From Eledone cirrhosa (lineage: Eukaryota): 43,989 nt of DNA. The notes under the pieces are model-generated. The model had not been told where the DNA came from. It saw only the letters and a list, made by a program, of their open reading frames with translations, and did no database searches. The DNA lies in contig CAXHJY010001336.1 of NCBI GenBank assembly GCA_964016885.1, positions 1-43,989 on the forward strand. Direction: 5' to 3'. This document shows positions 11,685 to 42,538 of this stretch, one piece after another. Position 1 is the stretch's first letter. Each line of letters begins with the position of its first letter. The translations under genes and the position numbers were made by a program.

Positions 11685-11925
11685 TATATACATATATATA
11701 TATATACATAAATATAAGTATGTACACGTACATACATATATGTATACAGACGTACAGTAGTATGTATATATATATATATATACATACATGCACACATATA
11801 TATATGTACGTATGGATTCACCGAACATTTATTATAATGATCGGTGTGCTTGTAAACAAACATCCCGTATTAAGCCGCAGTGTCTAGCAACCATCGTTGC
11901 TTGTTTGTTCAACACTGACAAAGGA

Positions 11926-11968
11926 ACACTGTACTAGTTTCAAGCTTATTAGCTATCGTCAGCAACGT
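11926..11968 (-). ncRNA. Type I hammerhead ribozyme motif (left arm)
   Basis: Minus strand: ACGTTG-CTGACGA-TAGCTAATAAGCTT-GAAA-CTAG-TA^CAGTGT; palindromic stem III ACTAGT; GUA site. Confidence 0.8.
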
Positions 11969-12203
11969 ATACCTTCCTGCCAGATTGTTGAACGTATATA
12001 CTTACCTTATGCATATTAATGGCTGGGTAGCCCAATTTGCATATCGAGTGGGTTAATTGGCCGGGTGCACCAAAAACGATAAACGGAAAAAATCATTTTC
12101 GGTGTACCCGGCCGATTAACCCACTCGATATGCAAATTGGGCTACTCAGCCGTTAATATGTATAAGGTAAGTATATACGTTAAACAATCTGGCAGGAAGG
12201 TAT

Positions 12204-12246
12204 ATGTTGCTGACGATAGCTAATAAGCTTGAAACTAGTACAGCGT
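12204..12246 (+). ncRNA. Type I hammerhead ribozyme motif (right arm)
   Basis: ATGTTG-CTGACGA-TAGCTAATAAGCTT-GAAA-CTAG-TA^CAGCGT; predicted cleavage after 12240; stem I extends via AAGG/CCTT. Confidence 0.8.
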
Positions 12247-12440
12247 TCCTTTGTCAGTGTTGAACAAACGAGCAACGATGGTTGCTGGACACTATGGCTT
12301 AATACGGGATGTTTGTTTACAAACACACCGAGCATTATAATAAATGTTCGGTGAATCCATACGTACATATATATATATGTGTGCATGTATGTATATATAC
12401 ATACTACTGTACGTCTGTATACATATATGTATGTACGTGT

Positions 12441-13716
12441 TTACATCCGATATCGAACCTCAGGCAGCATATTTAACATCAGGCGCTTTGCTGCGAAGAC
12501 AAAAGTATTTACATCAGTCATAAGAGACCTCTTGTATGCAGATGATTGCGATCTTGTAGCGCACACAGAGAGTGATATGCAGCACATTTTGAATGCATTT
12601 TCTGACGCTTGCACTGCCCTGGGTTTGACTGTCAGTCTCAAGAAAACCGTCATCATGTACCAACCTGCCCCTAGTAAGCAGTACACTGAACCAAACATCT
12701 ATGTGTATGGCAAACGACTTGGAGTGGTTGATCAGTTTGTCTACCTGGGAAGCACTGTCAATCGATACAGCAACCTTGACAGTGAAATCTCACTTAGGAT
12801 TAGGAAAGCAAGTGATGCTTTCGGAAAGCTAGAAAGGCGACTCTGGGGTCGGCGAGACATATGCAGGAGGACAAAGGTAAAGGTGTACAGGGCATGTGTG
12901 CTCTCTTGTCTTCTTTATGCCTGCGAGACCTGGGTCACATATCGACACCACCTTAAGCAATTGGAGCGTTTCCATCAGATGTGTCTCAGACGGATCCATG
13001 GCGTTCACTGGAGGGACCACATCAGTGATGTCGAGATTTTGGAAAGCTCTATGTGTGACAGTATAGAAGCTCTTGTGCTTAAGCAACGACTCCGTTGGAG
13101 TGGTCACCTTACCAGGATGAAGGATTCTAGAATACCAAAACAACTCTTTTATGGAGAGTTGGTTAAAGGAAAACGACCGCCACATAAACCAAAAAGGAGG
13201 TATACGGATTCCTTGAAAGCCTCTCTGAAAGACGCTAACATCTCTGTTGATACATGGGAAAATATTGCTGCTGATCGTAATAAATGGAGAAAGACTGTAT
13301 ATGAGGGAAAAGTTGCCTTTGAGGCATCTCGAATCGCACACGAGAAAGTAAAGCGGGACGTGAGGAAGGGCATTGCTGTTGCACTTCCACATGGCGAGGG
13401 TCCTCCTATGGTGCTGACATGCAGCGTCTGTGCGAGACTCTGCCTAAGTAAAGCTGGACTCGAAAGTCATCTTCGCAGTCATAAAGTAAGACCAGTGGTT
13501 GACTACCAGGCTGCTGTTGGAGATGCTACTCATCATGCTTGCCAAACATGTGGTAGAGAATGTAAATCAGCAGGAGGCCTCAAGCGACATACAAAAGTAC
13601 ACAAACTCCAACCACAGCCGACTATTCCCAGTGAATGTTTTGGTTGCCGACTCTGTGCAAGACATTTTAGATCATTGGCTGGGCTAAAAAGCCACATTCG
13701 ATCGCAGCACTGTTAG
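12441..13716 (+). mobile_element. 5'-truncated RTE-clade LINE ORF: RT C-half plus three C2H2 zinc fingers, frame intact
   Basis: LLYADDCDL, FVYLGS, LLYACETW, RLRWSGHLTRM, GKRPPHKPKRRY and three CxxC-x12-H-x3/4-H fingers; ends in (TG)n. The ATG at 12379 is microsatellite-derived. Confidence 0.9.
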
Positions 13717-13824
13717 TTGCTATCGTGTGTGTGTGTGTGTGTGTGTGTAGATATGCTTATGTGCGTGCGTGTGTGTGTGTATATATATATGAATATGTAT
13801 ATTATTATTGTTGTTGTCGTTATT

Positions 13825-14640
13825 ATTATTGGTGTTATTCCTTGAATCTCAGTCATTGATGTTGGTTAACTGGAAAGTCCGTTGGAATGAATATCAAGCC
13901 ACTACCTGCAGCCTCAGATATTCAGGACGTATCGGAGGGTTCTTGCTGTTCCAAGCAAGCATGCCTTTTGAAGCGTTCCAAAAAGCGTGAAGGGGCCGAT
14001 TTTCTTTAACCATCCCTGGAAACTTTTGGAGATAGTCCCCAGTGCGCCTATGACAATCGGGATCACTTTGACTTCATGGCAGTTCCAAATCCTTTTCACC
14101 TCCCACTTTAGGTCCTGGTATCGGTTAATTTTCTCCCTCTCCTTCTCTTGCACTCTCGTGTCGAAAGGGCAGGCCACATCCACAATCAGACACAATCTTT
14201 TTTCTTTGTCCACAACCACCAGGTCAGGTCTATTGTATTCCAGTTTTTTGTCCGTCTGTATCCTAAAATCCCACAGCACCTTCACCTGATTGTTCTCCAT
14301 CACCGCCTCTGGCCTATGCTCATACCATTTCTCAGAATGTGGTAAACTGTTTACTTTGCACAGGTGCCAGTGGATCACCCTGCCCATCACATCGTGTCTC
14401 CAGCCCATATAGTGGGTCTGGGCTAGGTGTTTACACTCGGATACAATGTGAGCCACAGTCTCCTCTCTCTCTTCACAGATCCTGCACAGTGGGCTAGCCT
14501 CCTCCTTGTAAATATGGTGCTTCAACCACTTCGTTTTGAGGGCCTGCTCCTGCGCAGCCATTAGCATTCCTTCTGTAGCCTTTTTGAGGTCTCCTCTTCT
14601 CAACCAGTTCCATGTCTGTGGATCTCTAAATTCAGTTTTC
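13825..14640 (-). mobile_element. R4/Dong-like non-LTR retrotransposon 3' fragment (CCHC knuckle plus restriction-like endonuclease)
   Basis: CRIC..ETVAHIVSEC, RHD, RPDLVVVDK..IVDVACP..KEREKINRY; stop at 13914; short 3' UTR runs into (AAT)n. Confidence 0.88.
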
Positions 14641-14641
14641 G

Positions 14642-14674
<33 letters not shown>

Positions 14675-14930
14675 TATGTATATTATTATTGTTGTAGTCG
14701 TTCGTTATTATTATTATTGCTATTATTATTATTATTATCATTATTATTATTGTTATTAATGTATGTGTGTGTATATGTGTGAGTGTATGTGTATGTATGT
14801 GTGTATGTATATATGTATGTATATATATATATATATATATTTCTTTTTTTCTTTTCTTTACCTTTTTTTTTTTAAATTTATTTATTATTATTATTTTTTT
14901 TATTTTATTTTATTTATTTATTTTTTTCTT
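14641..14930. repeat. (TA)n, (ATT)n, (TG)n and T-rich low-complexity block
   Basis: Direct inspection. Confidence 0.85.
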
Positions 14931-15052
14931 CTCGTGCAATGGCCATACTCGATAACGAGGGGGCAGCCATCATCATGTACGTGTACATACTTATATTTAA
15001 GTAACAGCCGTAATATGAGTGGGAAATGAAATTTCGTTTCATTTTTTCCGTT

Positions 15053-15176
15053 TATATATACATATATACATATACACATACATATACATACACACATACA
15101 TACACACATACATACATACATACACACACATACATACACACATACATACACACATACACACATACATACATACATA

Positions 15177-18048: not shown

Positions 18049-21000
18049 GTGGTGTTAAACCAGGTAATGGACACTGCTAAAATCATCTTATAGTCAGGTG
18101 GTGGTGTTAAACCAGGTAATGGACACTGCTAAAATCATCTTATAGTCAGGTGGTGGTGTTAAACCAGGTAATGGACACTGCTAAAATCATCTTATAGTCA
18201 GGTGGTGGTGTTAAACCAGGTAATGGACACTGCTAAAATCATCTTATAGTCAGGTGGTGGTGTTAAACCAGGTAATGGACACTGCTAAAATCATCTTATA
18301 GTCAGGTGGTGGTGTTAAACCAGGTAATGGACACTGCTAAAATCATCTTATAGTCAGGTGGTGGTGTTAAACCAGGTAATGGACACTGCTAAAATCACCT
18401 TATAGTCAGGTGGTGGTGTTAAACCAGATAATGGACACTGCTAAAATCGGCCTATAGTCAGGTGGTGGTGTTAAACCAGATAACGGACACTGCTAAAATC
18501 GGCCTATAGTCAGGTGGTGGTGTTAAACCAGGTAATGGACACTGCTAAAATCATCTTATAGTCAGGTGGTGGTGTTAAACCAGGTAATGGACACTGCTAA
18601 AATCATCTTATAGTCAGGTGGTGGTGTTAAACCAGGTAATGGACACTGCTAAAATCACCTTATAGTCAGGTGGTGGTGTTAAACCAGATAATGGACACTG
18701 CTAAAATCGGCCTATAGTCAGGTGGTGGTGTTAAACCAGATAACGGACACTGCTAAAATCGGCCTATAGTCAGGTGGTGGTGTTAAACCAGGTAATGGAC
18801 ACTGCTAAAATCATCTTATAGTCAGGTGGTGGTGTTAAACCAGGTAATGGACACTGCTAAAATCATCTTATAGTCAGGTGGTGGTGTTAAACCAGGTAAT
18901 GGACACTGCTAAAATCACCTTATAGTCAGGTGGTGGTGTTAAACCAGATAATGGACACTGCTAAAATCGGCCTATAGTCAGGTGGTGGTGTTAAACCAGA
19001 TAACGGACACTGCTAAAATCGGCCTATAGTCAGGTGGTGGTGTTAAACCAGGTAATGGACACTGCTAAAATCACCTTATAGTCAGGTGGTGGTGTTAAAC
19101 CAGATAATGGACACTGCTAAAATCGGCCTATAGTCAGGTGGTGGTGTTAAACCAGGTAATGGACACTGCTAAAATCATCTTATAGTCAGGTGGTGGTGTT
19201 AAACCAGGTAATGGACACTGCTAAAATCATCTTATAGTCAGGTGGTGGTGTTAAACCAGGTAATGGACACTGCTAAAATCATCTTATAGTCAGGTGGTGG
19301 TGTTAAACCAGGTAATGGACACTGCTAAAATCATCTTATAGTCAGGTGGTGGTGTTAAACCAGGTAATGGACACTGCTAAAATCATCTTATAGTCAGGTG
19401 GTGGTGTTAAACCAGGTAATGGACACTGCTAAAATCATCTTATAGTCAGGTGGTGGTGTTAAACCAGGTAATGGACACTGCTAAAATCATCTTATAGTCA
19501 GGTGGTGGTGTTAAACCAGGTAATGGACACTGCTAAAATCATCTTATAGTCAGGTGGTGGTGTTAAACCAGGTAATGGACACTGCTAAAATCACCTTATA
19601 GTCAGGTGGTGGTGTTAAACCAGATAATGGACACTGCTAAAATCGGCCTATAGTCAGGTGGTGGTGTTAAACCAGATAACGGACACTGCTAAAATCGGCC
19701 TATAGTCAGGTGGTGGTGTTAAACCAGGTAATGGACACTGCTAAAATCATCTTATAGTCAGGTGGTGGTGTTAAACCAGGTAATGGACACTGCTAAAATC
19801 ATCTTATAGTCAGGTGGTGGTGTTAAACCAGGTAATGGACACTGCTAAAATCACCTTATAGTCAGGTGGTGGTGTTAAACCAGATAATGGACACTGCTAA
19901 AATCGGCCTATAGTCAGGTGGTGGTGTTAAACCAGATAACGGACACTGCTAAAATCGGCCTATAGTCAGGTGGTGGTGTTAAACCAGGTAATGGACACTG
20001 CTAAAATCATCTTATAGTCAGGTGGTGGTGTTAAACCAGGTAATGGACACTGCTAAAATCATCTTATAGTCAGGTGGTGGTGTTAAACCAGGTAATGGAC
20101 ACTGCTAAAATCACCTTATAGTCAGGTGGTGGTGTTAAACCAGATAATGGACACTGCTAAAATCGGCCTATAGTCAGGTGGTGGTGTTAAACCAGATAAC
20201 GGACACTGCTAAAATCGGCCTATAGTCAGGTGGTGGTGTTAAACCAGGTAATGGACACTGCTAAAATCACCTTATAGTCAGGTGGTGGTGTTAAACCAGA
20301 TAATGGACACTGCTAAAATCGGCCTATAGTCAGGTGGTGGTGTTAAACCAGATAACGGACACTGCTAAAATCGGCCTATAGTCAGGTGGTGGTGTTAAAC
20401 CAGGTAATGGACACTGCTAAAATCATCTTATAGTCAGGTGGTGGTGTTAAACCAGGTAATGGACACTGCTAAAATCATCTTATAGTCAGGTGGTGGTGTT
20501 AAACCAGGTAATGGACACTGCTAAAATCATCTTATAGTCAGGTGGTGGTGTTAAACCAGGTAATGGACACTGCTAAAATCATCTTATAGTCAGGTGGTGG
20601 TGTTAAACCAGGTAATGGACACTGCTAAAATCATCTTATAGTCAGGTGGTGGTGTTAAACCAGGTAATGGACACTGCTAAAATCACCTTATAGTCAGGTG
20701 GTGGTGTTAAACCAGATAATGGACACTGCTAAAATCGGCCTATAGTCAGGTGGTGGTGTTAAACCAGATAACGGACACTGCTAAAATCGGCCTATAGTCA
20801 GGTGGTGGTGTTAAACCAGGTAATGGACACTGCTAAAATCATCTTATAGTCAGGTGGTGGTGTTAAACCAGGTAATGGACACTGCTAAAATCATCTTATA
20901 GTCAGGTGGTGGTGTTAAACCAGGTAATGGACACTGCTAAAATCACCTTATAGTCAGGTGGTGGTGTTAAACCAGATAATGGACACTGCTAAAATCGGCC

Positions 21001-22171
21001 TATAGTCAGGTGGTGGTGTTAAACCAGATAACGGACACTGCTAAAATCGGCCTATAGTCAGGTGGTGGTGTTAAACCAGGTAATGGACACTGCTAAAATC
21101 ACCTTATAGTCAGGTGGTGGTGTTAAACCAGATAATGGACACTGCTAAAATCGGCCTATAGTCAGGTGGTGGTGTTAAACCAGGTAATGGACACTGCTAA
21201 AATCATCTTATAGTCAGGTGGTGGTGTTAAACCAGGTAATGGACACTGCTAAAATCATCTTATAGTCAGGTGGTGGTGTTAAACCAGGTAATGGACACTG
21301 CTAAAATCATCTTATAGTCAGGTGGTGGTGTTAAACCAGGTAATGGACACTGCTAAAATCATCTTATAGTCAGGTGGTGGTGTTAAACCAGGTAATGGAC
21401 ACTGCTAAAATCATCTTATAGTCAGGTGGTGGTGTTAAACCAGGTAATGGACACTGCTAAAATCATCTTATAGTCAGGTGGTGGTGTTAAACCAGGTAAT
21501 GGACACTGCTAAAATCATCTTATAGTCAGGTGGTGGTGTTAAACCAGGTAATGGACACTGCTAAAATCATCTTATAGTCAGGTGGTGGTGTTAAACCAGG
21601 TAATGGACACTGCTAAAATCATCTTATAGTCAGGTGGTGGTGTTAAACCAGGTAATGGACACTGCTAAAATCATCTTATAGTCAGGTGGTGGTGTTAAAC
21701 CAGGTAATGGACACTGCTAAAATCACCTTATAGTCAGGTGGTGGTGTTAAACCAGATAATGGACACTGCTAAAATCGGCCTATAGTCAGGTGGTGGTGTT
21801 AAACCAGATAACGGACACTGCTAAAATCGGCCTATAGTCAGGTGGTGGTGTTAAACCAGGTAATGGACACTGCTAAAATCATCTTATAGTCAGGTGGTGG
21901 TGTTAAACCAGGTAATGGACACTGCTAAAATCATCTTATAGTCAGGTGGTGGTGTTAAACCAGATAATGGACACTGCTAAAATCATCTTATAGTCAGGTG
22001 GTGGTGTTAAACCAGGTAATGGACACTGCTAAAATCATCTTATAGTCAGGTGGTGGTGTTAAACCAGGTAATGGACACTGCTAAAATCATCTTATAGTCA
22101 GGTGGTGGTGTTAAACCAGGTAATGGACACTGCTAAAATCATCTTATAGTCAGGTGGTGGTGTTAAACCAG
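18049..22171. repeat. 52-bp satellite array, 79 full units, with higher-order organisation
   Basis: Unit GTGGTGTTAAACCAGGTAATGGACACTGCTAAAATCATCTTATAGTCAGGTG with constant 52-bp phase. Confidence 0.98.
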
Positions 22172-22419
22172 ATGATGGATTAAGTTTATCACCCAAACAG
22201 GCAATACTTGGATTTGAACTCGACACAAACAACTTAAACAATTACTGCAATATATCACACCTAATGTTCTAACAATTTGGTTAATTCCTTACTTTGTATT
22301 GGGACTTTATCAATCTGAAAGAATGAAAGGTCATGTTGACATCAAAAGGATTTGAACACAGAGTGCAATAAATCGGAACAAATACTGCAAGCCATTTTAT
22401 CATACATTCTAATCATAAC

Positions 22420-28784: not shown

Positions 28785-28795
28785 TGGTGACCCCG
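28785..28795 (+). promoter_or_regulatory. Primer-binding site, tRNA-Trp type
   Basis: TGGTGACCCCG starts 2 nt after the LTR; complementary to the tRNA-Trp 3' end (..CGGGGTCACCA). Confidence 0.85.
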
Positions 28796-28835
28796 TAAAA
28801 CAGACACACAACCTTCTGATCAACCACAACAAACG

Positions 28836-29717
28836 ATGTCTCTAGCACACGACGATTCATCTACGGCAGAAATGGCAGTCAGGGCGGCATTTACATTAAG
28901 GATTCCACCATTCTGGGTGCACGATCCAACACTGTGGTTCGCGCACATCGAAGCGCAGTTCGCATCGAACCGGATCGTTAGCGAGGCATCCCGTCTCACA
29001 CATCTCATCGGTTCGATGTCTCCGGAGATTTTGAATGAGGTTCGAGACCTCATTTTAGCAGCACCCGGCTCTGTATCATATGACACATTTAAAAGAACAT
29101 TAGTTAAGCAGACATCGGAGTCGCAGCAGAAGTGTTTGCACGAGCTCCTCATATCGGAGGAATTAGGAGATAAAAAGCCGACGCAACTCCTACGGAGAAT
29201 GAAGCAGCTTCTGGGTGAACATAAACTCCCGGATTAAATTTTTAAGCAACTCTTCCTTCAGCGTTTACCTTCTGCCACACAAGTTGTACTAGCATCCACC
29301 AGAGAGTCCACCACCATAGAAGAACTTGCCGAGCTGGCAGATAAGATCATGGAGGTACCACATCCGCACTCAACTTTAGCAAATGTAACGCCAGCCGTGC
29401 CTCCCACCAATCCTTTTCTTCAGCCCTCCAGTGCCACAGAGACGCCCGATCTACACCAGTTACTGGCACAGCAAGCAACACAGATACAGGCCTTGACGCA
29501 ACAAATTCGGGCCTTGTCACTGGGCAACCCTGCCACGCGTCGGTCCAACAGCCGAACTCGCCGATTTGGTGGTCGCTCAAGAAGTCCCAGCGCATCTCGA
29601 GATTCACCAGAAATGTGTTGGTACCACCAAAGATTCGGGAGATGAGCGCAAAAGTGCAGCCATCCCTGTTCATTTGTTTCGAAATCGAATCAGGGAAACG
29701 ACACAGCCAGAAACTGA
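28836..29717 (+). pseudogene. gag: gag with in-frame stops at 29235 and 29643
   Basis: IPPFW..DP.LWFAHIEAQF, LGDKKPTQLLRRM, CWYHQRFG..AQKCSHPC. Confidence 0.88.
29693..29699 (+). promoter_or_regulatory. -1 ribosomal frameshift slippery site (gag-pol)
   Basis: G GGA AAC in the gag frame; the pol frame (GGG AAA CGA) is -1 and open into the protease. Confidence 0.75.
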
Positions 29718-32700
29718 ATGCGACAGACGTTTCTGGCCCTCATAACCAAAGTCGCCTATTTTTTATTCAGGATCGCGTCACAGGCACGCGTTTCCTGGTC
29801 GACACCGGTGCTGAAGTGAGCATCATCCCGGTTTCCTGCGTTCCTGGAAAAAGGAGAGAGACACCAGCCTGGCTCCAGGCAGTGAATCACTCACATATTC
29901 CGACCTACGGAGAACAGTCCCCGACACTAAATTTGGGACTACGCCGCACTTTCCAGTGGGTATTCGTTGTTGCTAAGCTGCCGACCCCTATTTTAGGAGC
30001 TGATTTTCTTCAGCACTTCTCGCTTCTAGTGGATCTGAAAAACTAACGTCTCGTCGACAACTCCACTGGACTCACTGTGCGCGGCATAGCTGCTAGGACA
30101 GCCACAGTCAGTCCAGTCATTTCAAGATCGACAACAACCCGGCACAACCACATCATCAACAAATACACATGTAGCTCGACCACTATTCAACGCTTGCCCT
30201 GTAAAACATGATGTCACACACCACATAAAAACTCACGGCCCACCTGTCGCTGCACGACCTAGAAGGCTACCACCAGACCGGCTGAAGTCCGTCAAACAAG
30301 AATTTCAGCACATGCTGGATGTCGGCATCATACGTCCGTCCAGCAGCAACTGGTCCTCACCCATACACTGTGTACCCAAGAAGTCGTCGAACGACTGGCG
30401 AATCTGTGGCGACTACCGTGCACTAAACAACTGCACCGTTCCTGACTCTTATCCAGTGCCTCATCTACAGGACTTCTCTAGCTCGCTGCACGGGGCTCGC
30501 ATATTTTCGAAGATCGATCTTGTGCGAGCTTACAATCAGATACCCGTTGAGCCCGCAGATATTCCAAAGACCGCAGTCACAACACCCTTTGGAATGTTCG
30601 AATTTCTGCGTATGCCTTTCGGTTTGCGAAATGCAGTGCAGACATTCCAGCGATTCATCGATAGTCACCAGGGGTCTACCTTTTGTATACGCATACATTG
30701 ACGACTTACTGGTGGCCAGCAGCTCCGATGAGGAACATGAGAAACACCTGGATCTCCTATTCACACGTTTGCGTGAATATGGAATTGTTATCAACCCCAG
30801 CAAATGTGAGTTCGGAGTTGCGTCCCTTCATTTTCTGGGACACATCATTGACAAAGATGGTATTCGCCCACTTAAGGAGAAAGTCAAATCCATCATTGAT
30901 TTTCCACAACCTACATCTCTCCGCAAACTGCGAGAATTTCTTGGCCTGGTAAACTTCTACAGAAGATGTATACCCCACTGTGCAGAGACAGCCCAACTAC
31001 TCACAGATTTGCTGCGGCAGCGTACAACCCAAAACGCAAACATCAAGCTCAGCGAAAAAGAATGTACCGCTTTCGCTGAGTTGAAGAAAATGTTGTCCGA
31101 GGCTACAATGCTGAGTTACCCCAAACCTGATGCCCCAATGTGTTTATTGACTGATGCATCCGACTTCGGAGTTGGAGGTGTGCTTCAACAACTCTCTGGC
31201 GATATTTGGCGACCTGTATCTTTTTTCTATAAGTGATTAAAACCCACCGAAACTAAGTACAGCACATTCAGTCATGAATTATTGGCAGCATACCTTGCTG
31301 TCAAGCATTTTCGACACATGCTAGATGGTCGTGTGTTCTCTATATACACCGACCACAAACCACTAGTGTACGCGTTCAATGCCAAGCCTGACCGACACTC
31401 ACCCAGGGAGGTCCGACATCTGGACTTCATTTCCCAGTACACTACTGATATTCGGTACATTAAGGGTGCCACCAACTCAACAGCTGATGCCCTATCGCGC
31501 ATGGAGCTTAACATAATCCACACCACTGCCACTATCGACCTCCAGAGGATTGCAGTGGATCAACAGAATGACGAGGAACTGCTGCAACTCCGGAAATCAT
31601 CCTTGAAATTGAAGGAATGCCCGCTGCCCTCTTCTTCGGGTTATATTTGGTGCGACATCTCCACAGGCCACGAGCGCCCATACATGCCCCGGAAACATCG
31701 ACGCGACGTTTTCTCGGCAATTCATTCTCTGGCACATCCTGGCGTCCGCGCCACGCAGAAACTAATGTTTGCCCGCTTTGTGTGGCCCAACATCAACAAG
31801 GACACCGGCACATCAAAGCCCCGATTGGCTCTTTCGCAACACCTGATGCACGGTTCCAACATGTGCATATAGACATTGTTGGACCTTTGCCTCCTTCTCA
31901 CAACTACACTCATCTTCTCACCTGTGTCGACCGATTTTCTCGCTGGCCAGAAGCTTTTCCTCTGACGGATATTACTGCGGAAACTGTCGCCAAAACGCTA
32001 GTGTTTCACTGGGTTTCGCGTTTCGGCACACCAGCGACCATCACTACGGATAGAGGACGTCAGTTCGATTCGCACTTATTTACCGAGCTAACTCGTCTCC
32101 TCGGGTGCAAACACATCCGTACAACAGCGTATCACCCTGCGGCTAACGGCATGGTAGAACGCTTACACCGCCAGCTAAAATCATCTATCAAGGCTTACGA
32201 AGACTCCACTAACTGGTTCGAACACCTCCCACTCATTCTTCTTGGTATTCGTTCCACTGTTAAGGAGGGAGTCGGACATTCTCCGGCTGAAATGGTGTAT
32301 GGCACCGTACTCACTCTACCCGGACAAATGATTGCTCCTGTTTCGCCACAAGAACTTCCAAACCCTACAAAATTTGTGCACCGTTTACGGTCATCGATGT
32401 CGCATCTGTCTCCTTCAGCCCCTAAACAACAGCACGTTACTTCACACATACCAAAAGACATCGATACATGGACGCATGTTTTCGTTAGAAATGACGGTAT
32501 TCCATCGCAACTTCGTCCGCCGTATTCCGGGCCCTATAAGGTGATACAGAAATGCCCTAAGTATTTCGTCCTCGACTTGAACGGGAAACGAAATATCATC
32601 TCCATTGATCGTTTAAAAAAAGCGTTCATAGAACAGGAATTGCCACCAGTACCCACCGTTTCTCCAGCAGACTCACCAACAACTTTGTCCGACACAAACA

Positions 32701-32750
32701 CGACAAATTCTGCACAACCCCGACACACCAAATCCGGAAGAACAGTCTGA
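29693..32750 (+). pseudogene. pol: pol (protease, RT, RNase H, integrase), disrupted
   Basis: FLVDTGAEVS; [11 protein letters not shown]; [12 protein letters not shown]; YIDDLLV; TDASDFGVG; YTDHKPL; [26 protein letters not shown]; PYSGPY. Stops at 30044 and 31234; several frameshifts. Confidence 0.93.
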
Positions 32751-36400: not shown

Positions 36401-37228
36401 TTGCATGCTCCGCTGGATGTGAAATAGTAATATACGTGAACGGCAAAGCATAAACGAACTAAGGAAAAAATTAGAAACAAGAGGGATCAGATGTTGTTTA
36501 CTCGAGAGAAGACTACTTTGGTACGGTCACGTGATGCGCATGAAAGATGATAGCTGTATAACAAAGTGCAGGGCAATAAAGATAGACGGTAGCCACAGAG
36601 TAGGCAAACCCAGAAAAACCTGGGACGAGCTGATAAATTCCCACCTGACACACTTACACCTCTCCAAGACAATGTCACTGGACCGAGACCTTTGGCGGTA
36701 CTCAGTAATAGAGAAGACCCGCCTTACCTAAATACAAAGGAAAACCTACTACAGTCAGTAGGCAGCTCTAACAAAATACACCCCCGTCCCACCACCCACA
36801 CCCCATCCACACCGCCCCCTTCTATGTAAAGTTATGTTGGTGCCACACCATCCAGGCCGAAACAAATGAGATCGTGTAGGTGTCACGACAAAAAAACACA
36901 CAGTCCACACTGTAATGTGGCCGTGTAGGTAACACGGTAAAAACATCCCAGACCCACATTGTAAATGTGGTTGGTGTTAGGAAGGGCATCCAGCTGTAGA
37001 AAACCTGCCAGACAGTCCACGCTGTAATGTGGCCGTGTAGGCAACACGGTAAAAACCTCCCAGCTCCACACTGTAAATGTGGTTGGTGTTAGGAAGGGCA
37101 TCCAGCTGTAGAAAACCCGCCAGACAGTCCTATGCGAGCAAGACAATCACTCTTGCCTCAAGTGGGAAAACCCCCGTCCAAACCCATGCAAGCGTGGAAC
37201 ACGGACGTTAAACGATGATGATGATGAT
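36401..37228 (+). mobile_element. Second RTE LINE 3' end in tandem, with an internal UTR duplication
   Basis: [20 protein letters not shown]; the segment CAGTCCAC..GTAGAAAACC occurs twice (~36900-37125). Confidence 0.88.
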
Positions 37229-42230
<5,002 letters not shown>

Positions 42231-42538
42231 GTATATATGTGTGCGTCCGCATGTATCTGTGTGTTTCTAAATATATTAATAACTCCCTCTGGTCGAGCAA
42301 TCTTCGAGGTGTGGGGACAACTGGAAAGCTTCCATTACTCATACTTCTCGCCTTCTTCACTACCTCTTCTACGGCCTCGATATGAATACCCCTCCGCCTC
42401 CGTGGTATTTTCTTCGTGGTTATAGGAGGCTTAGCTCTGTTTCTCGACAGTTATATCGCGTGACTATCTCCCCCTCCGCCTTTTGGGATTCTTTCTCACG
42501 TCGTGTAGACGCGTTCTTGAGACTAGTAAAATGAGGTA

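Follow-up and report, generated by a model that had tools for sequence, protein, structure and literature searches.

The palindrome centred on position 12086 is a single old insertion of an abundant 420-nt repeat that carries a predicted hammerhead ribozyme (HHR), a non-LTR retrozyme. In all likelihood a retrozyme was reverse-transcribed by the enzyme of a Penelope-like element (PLE) into a (TA)n tract, which would have given truncated head-to-head copies, one of them tailed, with later retroelements entering the right arm. Judged by sequence features, the repeat belongs to the retrozyme class on its type I HHR with an intact core, its short non-coding tandem unit and its many copies. The window, meaning the whole stretch of DNA analysed, is an entire 44-kb contig, unplaced, of the 3.0-Gb genome of Eledone cirrhosa. 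The layout itself has already been described for Penelope-type elements and the locus is ordinary; the value lies in a large young family, from an invertebrate, in which a retrozyme inserts with the complete Penelope signature. The family-wide statistics of the ends are the part worth keeping, as countable evidence on the tandem and inverted insertion of PLEs.

Anatomy of the palindrome

At coordinate sum 24172 the inverted arms are complementary at 230 of 245 positions, the runner-up register reaching 82. Monomer positions follow a natural unit used as reference (L006:1501-1920), position 1 being window 12092. An earlier note on this DNA had described a 720-bp palindrome at 11724..12440; the inverted arms about 12086 stand, but the boundaries do not, as the left arm reaches 11705 and the right arm resumes beyond a nested insertion (Table 1), where it differs from the monomer at 2 of 79 positions. 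What looked like an 11-nt loop is the part of the longer left arm that has nothing to pair with: in monomer terms this arm starts 13 nt upstream of the right one, and the two overlap by 2 nt. The TA/TG stretch formerly read as the tail of the element is internal to the monomer. The palindrome centre has no special status and consists of two random 5' truncation points. The LINE within the nested insertion is presumably an RTE element. A motif of about 45 nt (14931-14974), standing before the second copy of the duplication, also ends other repeats beside (TA)n (L005, L179, L200 and L223).

Table 1. Features of the palindrome and of the insertion nested in its right arm (window coordinates).
Feature	Position	Strand	Remarks
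Left arm	11705..12093	-	monomer 408-420 then 1-370; 95% to L006:1501-1920; end at 11705 is the tail-less 3' site, abutting (TA)n
Type I HHR motif, left arm	11926..11968	-	core 11962-11932, predicted cut after 11932
Arm overlap at junction	12092-12093		2 nt
Right arm, first part	12092..12440	+	monomer 1-351; 97%
Donor-like motif	12165..12172	+	mirror copy 12007-12000
Type I HHR motif, right arm	12204..12246	+	core 12210-12240, predicted cut after 12240
10-bp duplication, copy 1	12431..12440	+	flanks nested insertion
Nested composite insertion	12441..14974		about 2.5 kb, later than the palindrome; microsatellites also present
Nested insertion: 5'-truncated LINE	to 13716	+	RT C-terminus and C2H2 fingers
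Nested insertion: non-LTR fragment	about 13914-14640	-
10-bp duplication, copy 2	14975-14984	+	opens the resumed right arm
Right arm, resumed	14975..15053	+	monomer 342-420 with the ~54-nt tail, followed by (TA)n

Of the 270 non-simple positions, 16 differ between the arms, with 7 and 9 departures from the family majority, none of them in common, and 7 of the 16 differences lie at CpG; the arm differences read as decay, not compensation. The arms also disagree at three polymorphic columns (196, 203 and 204), as do units inside some tandems, so that either the two did not derive from one and the same unit or mutations have arisen since. The divergence of about 6%, brought forward earlier against an assembly fold-back artefact, does argue in that direction, together with the different 3' ends of the arms and the nested insertion with its duplication, which is confined to one arm. 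The window is a small contig in its entirety, and among the pieces listed from four other runs of unstated kind (an uninformative comparison) none spans the junction, both of which would suit an artefact; we give this explanation virtually no weight.

A loose HHR descriptor matches the window twice and no more (+ strand at 12210, - strand at 11962), compared with 0.03 matches per 32 kb across 100 shuffles, and the two cores are mirrored, which bears out the two opposite HHRs symmetric about 12086 that had been described from the letters. The core is complete and intact in both arms. Stem II starts with the U-U mismatch, confirmed at its base, and continues with four Watson-Crick pairs; helix III consists of two pairs closing a 2-nt palindromic loop; and the pairing of stem I, with hexamers as claimed and G-U pairing included, goes past six pairs. 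No Rfam hammerhead model matched at E<=10, and the scan otherwise gave miRNA-type matches only, on simple repeats and on the hairpin and all under the gathering score; the HHR call therefore rests on the descriptor and the conserved core.

The G-U pairs of stem I, pointed out earlier, are CpG transitions which occur in other copies too, and this speaks against a masking switch. Compensatory change in this stem was likewise rejected, both differences being CpG C>T and found in 9/82 and 3/90 other units. The lower variation of the HHR core was left unused, since many loci were selected by that core. A dimer is reportedly required by HHRs whose helix III is short and palindromic (PMC4209133, PMC7229834). 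With a helix III of 2 bp the ribozyme probably needs a second copy on the same strand, present on neither strand here; this copy is therefore probably inert and a dead end, in which a single HHR per strand can neither excise a monomer nor dimerise in cis. The monomer taken from cut to cut is predicted to fold stably (z -8.3), its two ends pairing in stem I, as expected of a retrozyme monomer.

The octamer, the donor-like motif and AATAAA are all present in the arms. Chance expectation is 0.32 for AATAAA, which is expected by chance here, and about 0.01 for each of the two 8-mers, uncorrected for the many motifs that could have been picked. Among units of the commonest type 103 have the GT of the donor-like motif, but the second-commonest type (29 units) and several rarer ones have another sequence in its place (at least 36 units); the donor-less subfamily spreads equally well. 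The octamer is retained in most units, like the rest of this young family. When contigs from the four runs of unstated kind were compared with 12050-12365, the family was found in all four, and among the pieces listed no joint starts from the donor-like motif. Two of these runs, X4 and X5, come from two other organisms and have contigs with the family, tandem junction sequence included.

The 420-nt repeat family and its junctions

Genome-wide, the exact 34-nt HHR core gives 5,653 matches and a second exact motif of 31 nt gives 9,941, with 0 for the reversed control of each; the right arm has 1,743 candidate matches, of which the 40 scored are 97-100% identical. The family monomer is 420 nt long and non-coding, with no PLE protein match below E 0.4. 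Copies are dispersed in large numbers and occur solo, as partial tandems and as dimers up to arrays of more than 18 kb with a spacing of about 420, usually in (TA)n; 5' truncation and AT-rich targets are seen across the family, and the window copy itself is not tandem. One tandem array of the unit (L155-L156, C1:51770900-51790700) extends over at least 18 kb and another (L154) has 10 units; these arrays are possible source loci for multimeric RNA.

Head-to-head junctions were counted in three sets of loci. The census covers contig C1 up to 52 Mb and comprises 77 loci, namely every cluster formed by the 100 matches listed first in the searches with the HHR core and the second motif; one 20-kb array was left out as its ends were not reached. 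The replicate set leaves out four non-family loci and one duplicate. A head-to-head junction is present in 39/77 census insertions, 14/28 top-hit loci and 18/25 family loci of the replicate set, shares which are upper estimates because selection by exact motifs favours two-armed loci. The earlier note had called for a search for palindromic versus solo copies: both layouts are common among the loci counted, but the exact palindrome junction was found once only, the junction pattern of the window having a single match in the whole genome. In the nearest look-alike of the palindrome the junction is another one and the left arm is short.

All 73 junctions of the combined set are distinct; one hit of the replicate set that lies in a local hairpin was left out. 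For the 70 junctions outside simple repeat, the offsets between arm starts are uniform over 0-204 nt (KS p 0.84), with 4/70 within 15 nt against 5.2 expected; 41 junctions show an overlap, 8 are blunt and 21 have extra bases. Among the first 100 HHR-core matches listed there are six two-core head-to-head pairs with six different spacings. As all junctions are distinct and the offsets uniform, the symmetry of the window (offset 13) is a product of chance. Another near-symmetric head-to-head case is L035. At L163 two head-to-head insertions each occur twice with identical junctions, which is local duplication and not transposition of a palindrome.

These counts bear on the proposal that the palindrome works, or propagates itself, as a unit in which a central bidirectional promoter frees two ribozymes while a read-through rod masks both. 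Read-through RNA of the + strand is indeed predicted to fold as a near-perfect rod (-593 kcal/mol, z -80), as had been suggested, both HHR cores are intact, and bidirectional pLTR promoters have been proposed for rotifer Penelope (PMC3846280). Against this, the central junction is not repeated at dispersed sites, near-symmetric offsets are no more frequent than the uniform distribution gives, the arm differences look neutral and one arm tolerates the LINE insertion. The palindrome is thus not borne out as a distinct element, and a functional unit is highly improbable.

Insertion ends and route of insertion

Free 3' ends of the family lie at monomer position about 366 or 420 and are followed by (TA)n; single-arm census loci end at about 366 in 12 cases, at about 420 in 22 and elsewhere in 4. 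In 44 of 46 scorable head-to-head cases one arm is tailed (about 54 nt) and the other tail-less (p 3e-11 vs 0.5), the tally being 26/28, 8/8 and 9/9 plus the window after 28 junctions in which an arm was cut or short had been dropped as unscorable; the exceptions are L131 and L147. The opposite arms share subfamily alleles, with a mismatch of 0.10 (33 loci) against 0.365 in random pairs, which points to one source per event, to which later conversion could contribute. The earlier description as non-autonomous, Penelope-related and head-to-head is upheld. The family shows several traits of a non-autonomous PLE: two fixed 3' ends, an optional tail, a tail at a single end of inverted insertions, 5' truncation, partial tandems, head-to-head inversion and an AT-rich target.

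An origin from two separate insertions that hit the same TA tract, or from a later DNA rearrangement such as inverted duplication or gene conversion, would be compatible with the three polymorphic columns that separate the window arms, with an abundant and TA-targeted family and with the whole-insertion duplications at L163. Yet the junctions have no TA spacer, true tail-to-tail pairs occur at 0/105 loci (the sole one flagged, L128, sits in self-complementary simple repeat), and both the tail asymmetry and a sharing of subfamilies far above that of random pairs oppose independent events, so that this origin is very hard to credit.

An origin driven by a PLE, but with the inversion arising through fold-back self-priming on an antisense template, has been proposed for rotifer Penelope (PMC3846280). 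It agrees with the common subfamily of the arms and with a few near-symmetric junctions (L177, L175, L199 and the window), one of them in a local hairpin. Simple fold-back predicts matching start points of the arms, whereas the observed offsets are uniform and symmetric junctions are not enriched; nor does it by itself predict one tail per insertion. Fold-back priming is very unlikely; the census speaks rather for priming on the two DNA strands.

No excess of 5' ends is found at the HHR cut site (2/120 vs 3.1 expected), and the genome thus bears no sign of a ribozyme cutting the template; the spread of the 5' ends, together with multimers that span several HHRs, indicates templates that were uncut or re-ligated. 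Positions 110-125, near the 5' strand of stem I, have 12/120 of the 5' ends, about 4.6 being expected, a post hoc count that is perhaps an effect of selection by the HHR core. Also post hoc and perhaps a selection effect, 5' ends possibly cluster at positions 401-410, with 408 shared by the window, L142 and L229.

For the preferred origin, insertion of the retrozyme by a PLE enzyme, the pattern of ends and the junction statistics are observed, whereas which enzyme and RNA took part, and in what order the steps came, we infer as follows. A tandem-array RNA, either an uncut multimer or a circle, would be bound by a PLE RT/GIY-YIG protein and both strands of AT-rich DNA would be nicked. One cDNA would be primed at monomer position about 366 and the other at about 420; both would halt at unrelated points and then be joined, often via an overlap of 1-9 nt, and the copy would later have decayed to its present 7 and 9 differences. 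Tentatively, as a serious possibility, a PLE dimer may prime both nicked strands on one RNA with its subunits at different start sites and with no ribozyme cutting. With each subunit at a different start site, an inverted insertion would almost obligately have one tailed and one tail-less arm, the two stopping at unrelated points, and the family's thousands of copies would be a record of how PLEs integrate. If true, the two-subunit model ties the two starts seen in vitro in another PLE to genomic inversions, against antisense fold-back priming.

Relatives and search for a partner

Metazoan non-LTR retrozymes have been described by Cervera and de la Pena (2020, PMC7229834) and by Li, Clavereau and Pollet (2026, 10.64898/2026.07.22.740005). 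Like these, the family has a non-coding tandem unit near the range of 150-450 bp with GC below 50%, one type I HHR per unit and thousands of copies from monomers to multimers; a U-U pair at the base of helix II is also reported there for the axolotl HHR_Amex2. Unlike them, no matching pLTR was found, and the 420-nt unit is known here as a DNA sequence. Head-to-head copies with a one-sided tail do not appear in the consulted text of either paper. Retrozymes have been proposed as non-autonomous PLE derivatives (10.64898/2026.07.22.740005), a preprint which by its own statement leaves the kinship of non-vertebrate retrozymes and PLEs outside its scope.

PLE insertions are reported with an inverted 5' copy, a one-sided tail and a bias to (TA)n or microsatellites (Craig 2021, PMC8557442; Arkhipova 2013, PMC3846280). 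The family resembles endonuclease-positive PLEs in its 5' truncation, partial tandems, head-to-head inversion, microsatellite targets and HHR in the repeat; it differs in that the 420-nt unit has no ORF and that the tail has about 54 nt against the published 30-40 nt (PMC8557442, PMC3846280). The one-sided tail, counted here as 44/46, is worded as 'often' or 'optionally' in the same two sources. How tandem and inverted PLE insertions form is named an open problem (PMC8557442).

For Poseidon of Anolis, cleavage of both strands and two internal RT starts that bound the tail have been reported in vitro, with a predicted dimer, no strand difference in start site and HHR cleavage unneeded (Frangieh 2024, PMC11167929). 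The two 3' ends of the family match two internal RT starts, its targets are AT-rich and its ends give no sign of the HHR cut site, all as in Poseidon. Unlike the family, Poseidon is an autonomous element, and its two starts are not linked to opposite arms of inverted insertions in the text of PMC11167929 as consulted. With its two 3' ends mapped, the RNA of 420 nt offers a compact substrate for the existing in vitro assay. A literature search gave no description of the 420-nt family and no count of tail asymmetry, which is weak evidence of absence as subscription papers or supplements may hold both.

The genome has 10,597 GIY-YIG candidates, of which 150 were scored, some with RT in the same ORF. 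Large head-to-head palindromes are present at 2/20 GIY-YIG loci retrieved, both of them GIY-YIG PLEs: L191:2260-5525 (3.3 kb, 99.7%), which has two opposite HHR motifs, a one-sided tail of about 50 nt and a stem II that also starts with U-U, and L183:1558-5155 (3.6 kb, 98.6%). These represent young autonomous families and are candidates for the mobilising enzyme. Similarity of the monomer to the 3' regions of PLEs exceeded that of shuffles in 0/16 regions, drawn from the 150 scored candidates. A BLAST search of 30 GIY-YIG loci with the monomer gave no partner and one neighbour (L086), on the opposite strand about 0.9 kb off; a variant-core pattern gave no partner either, the 100 listed of its 235 matches being mostly mutated family copies. 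A PLE protein match lies somewhere within 6/177 family-search loci. A second small HHR family was noticed at L187:7567-7712 and also at L183 and L194, and includes a 146-bp palindrome with two opposite cores.

Elsewhere the window has a 52-bp minisatellite of 79 copies with 96% matches (18049-22179), broken Gypsy-like gag-pol ORFs on the + strand (28791-32750) in which protease, RT, RNase H and integrase motifs were recognized by eye, and a 5-kb TA/TG simple repeat (37227-42240) whose strand bias flips around 38-39 kb.
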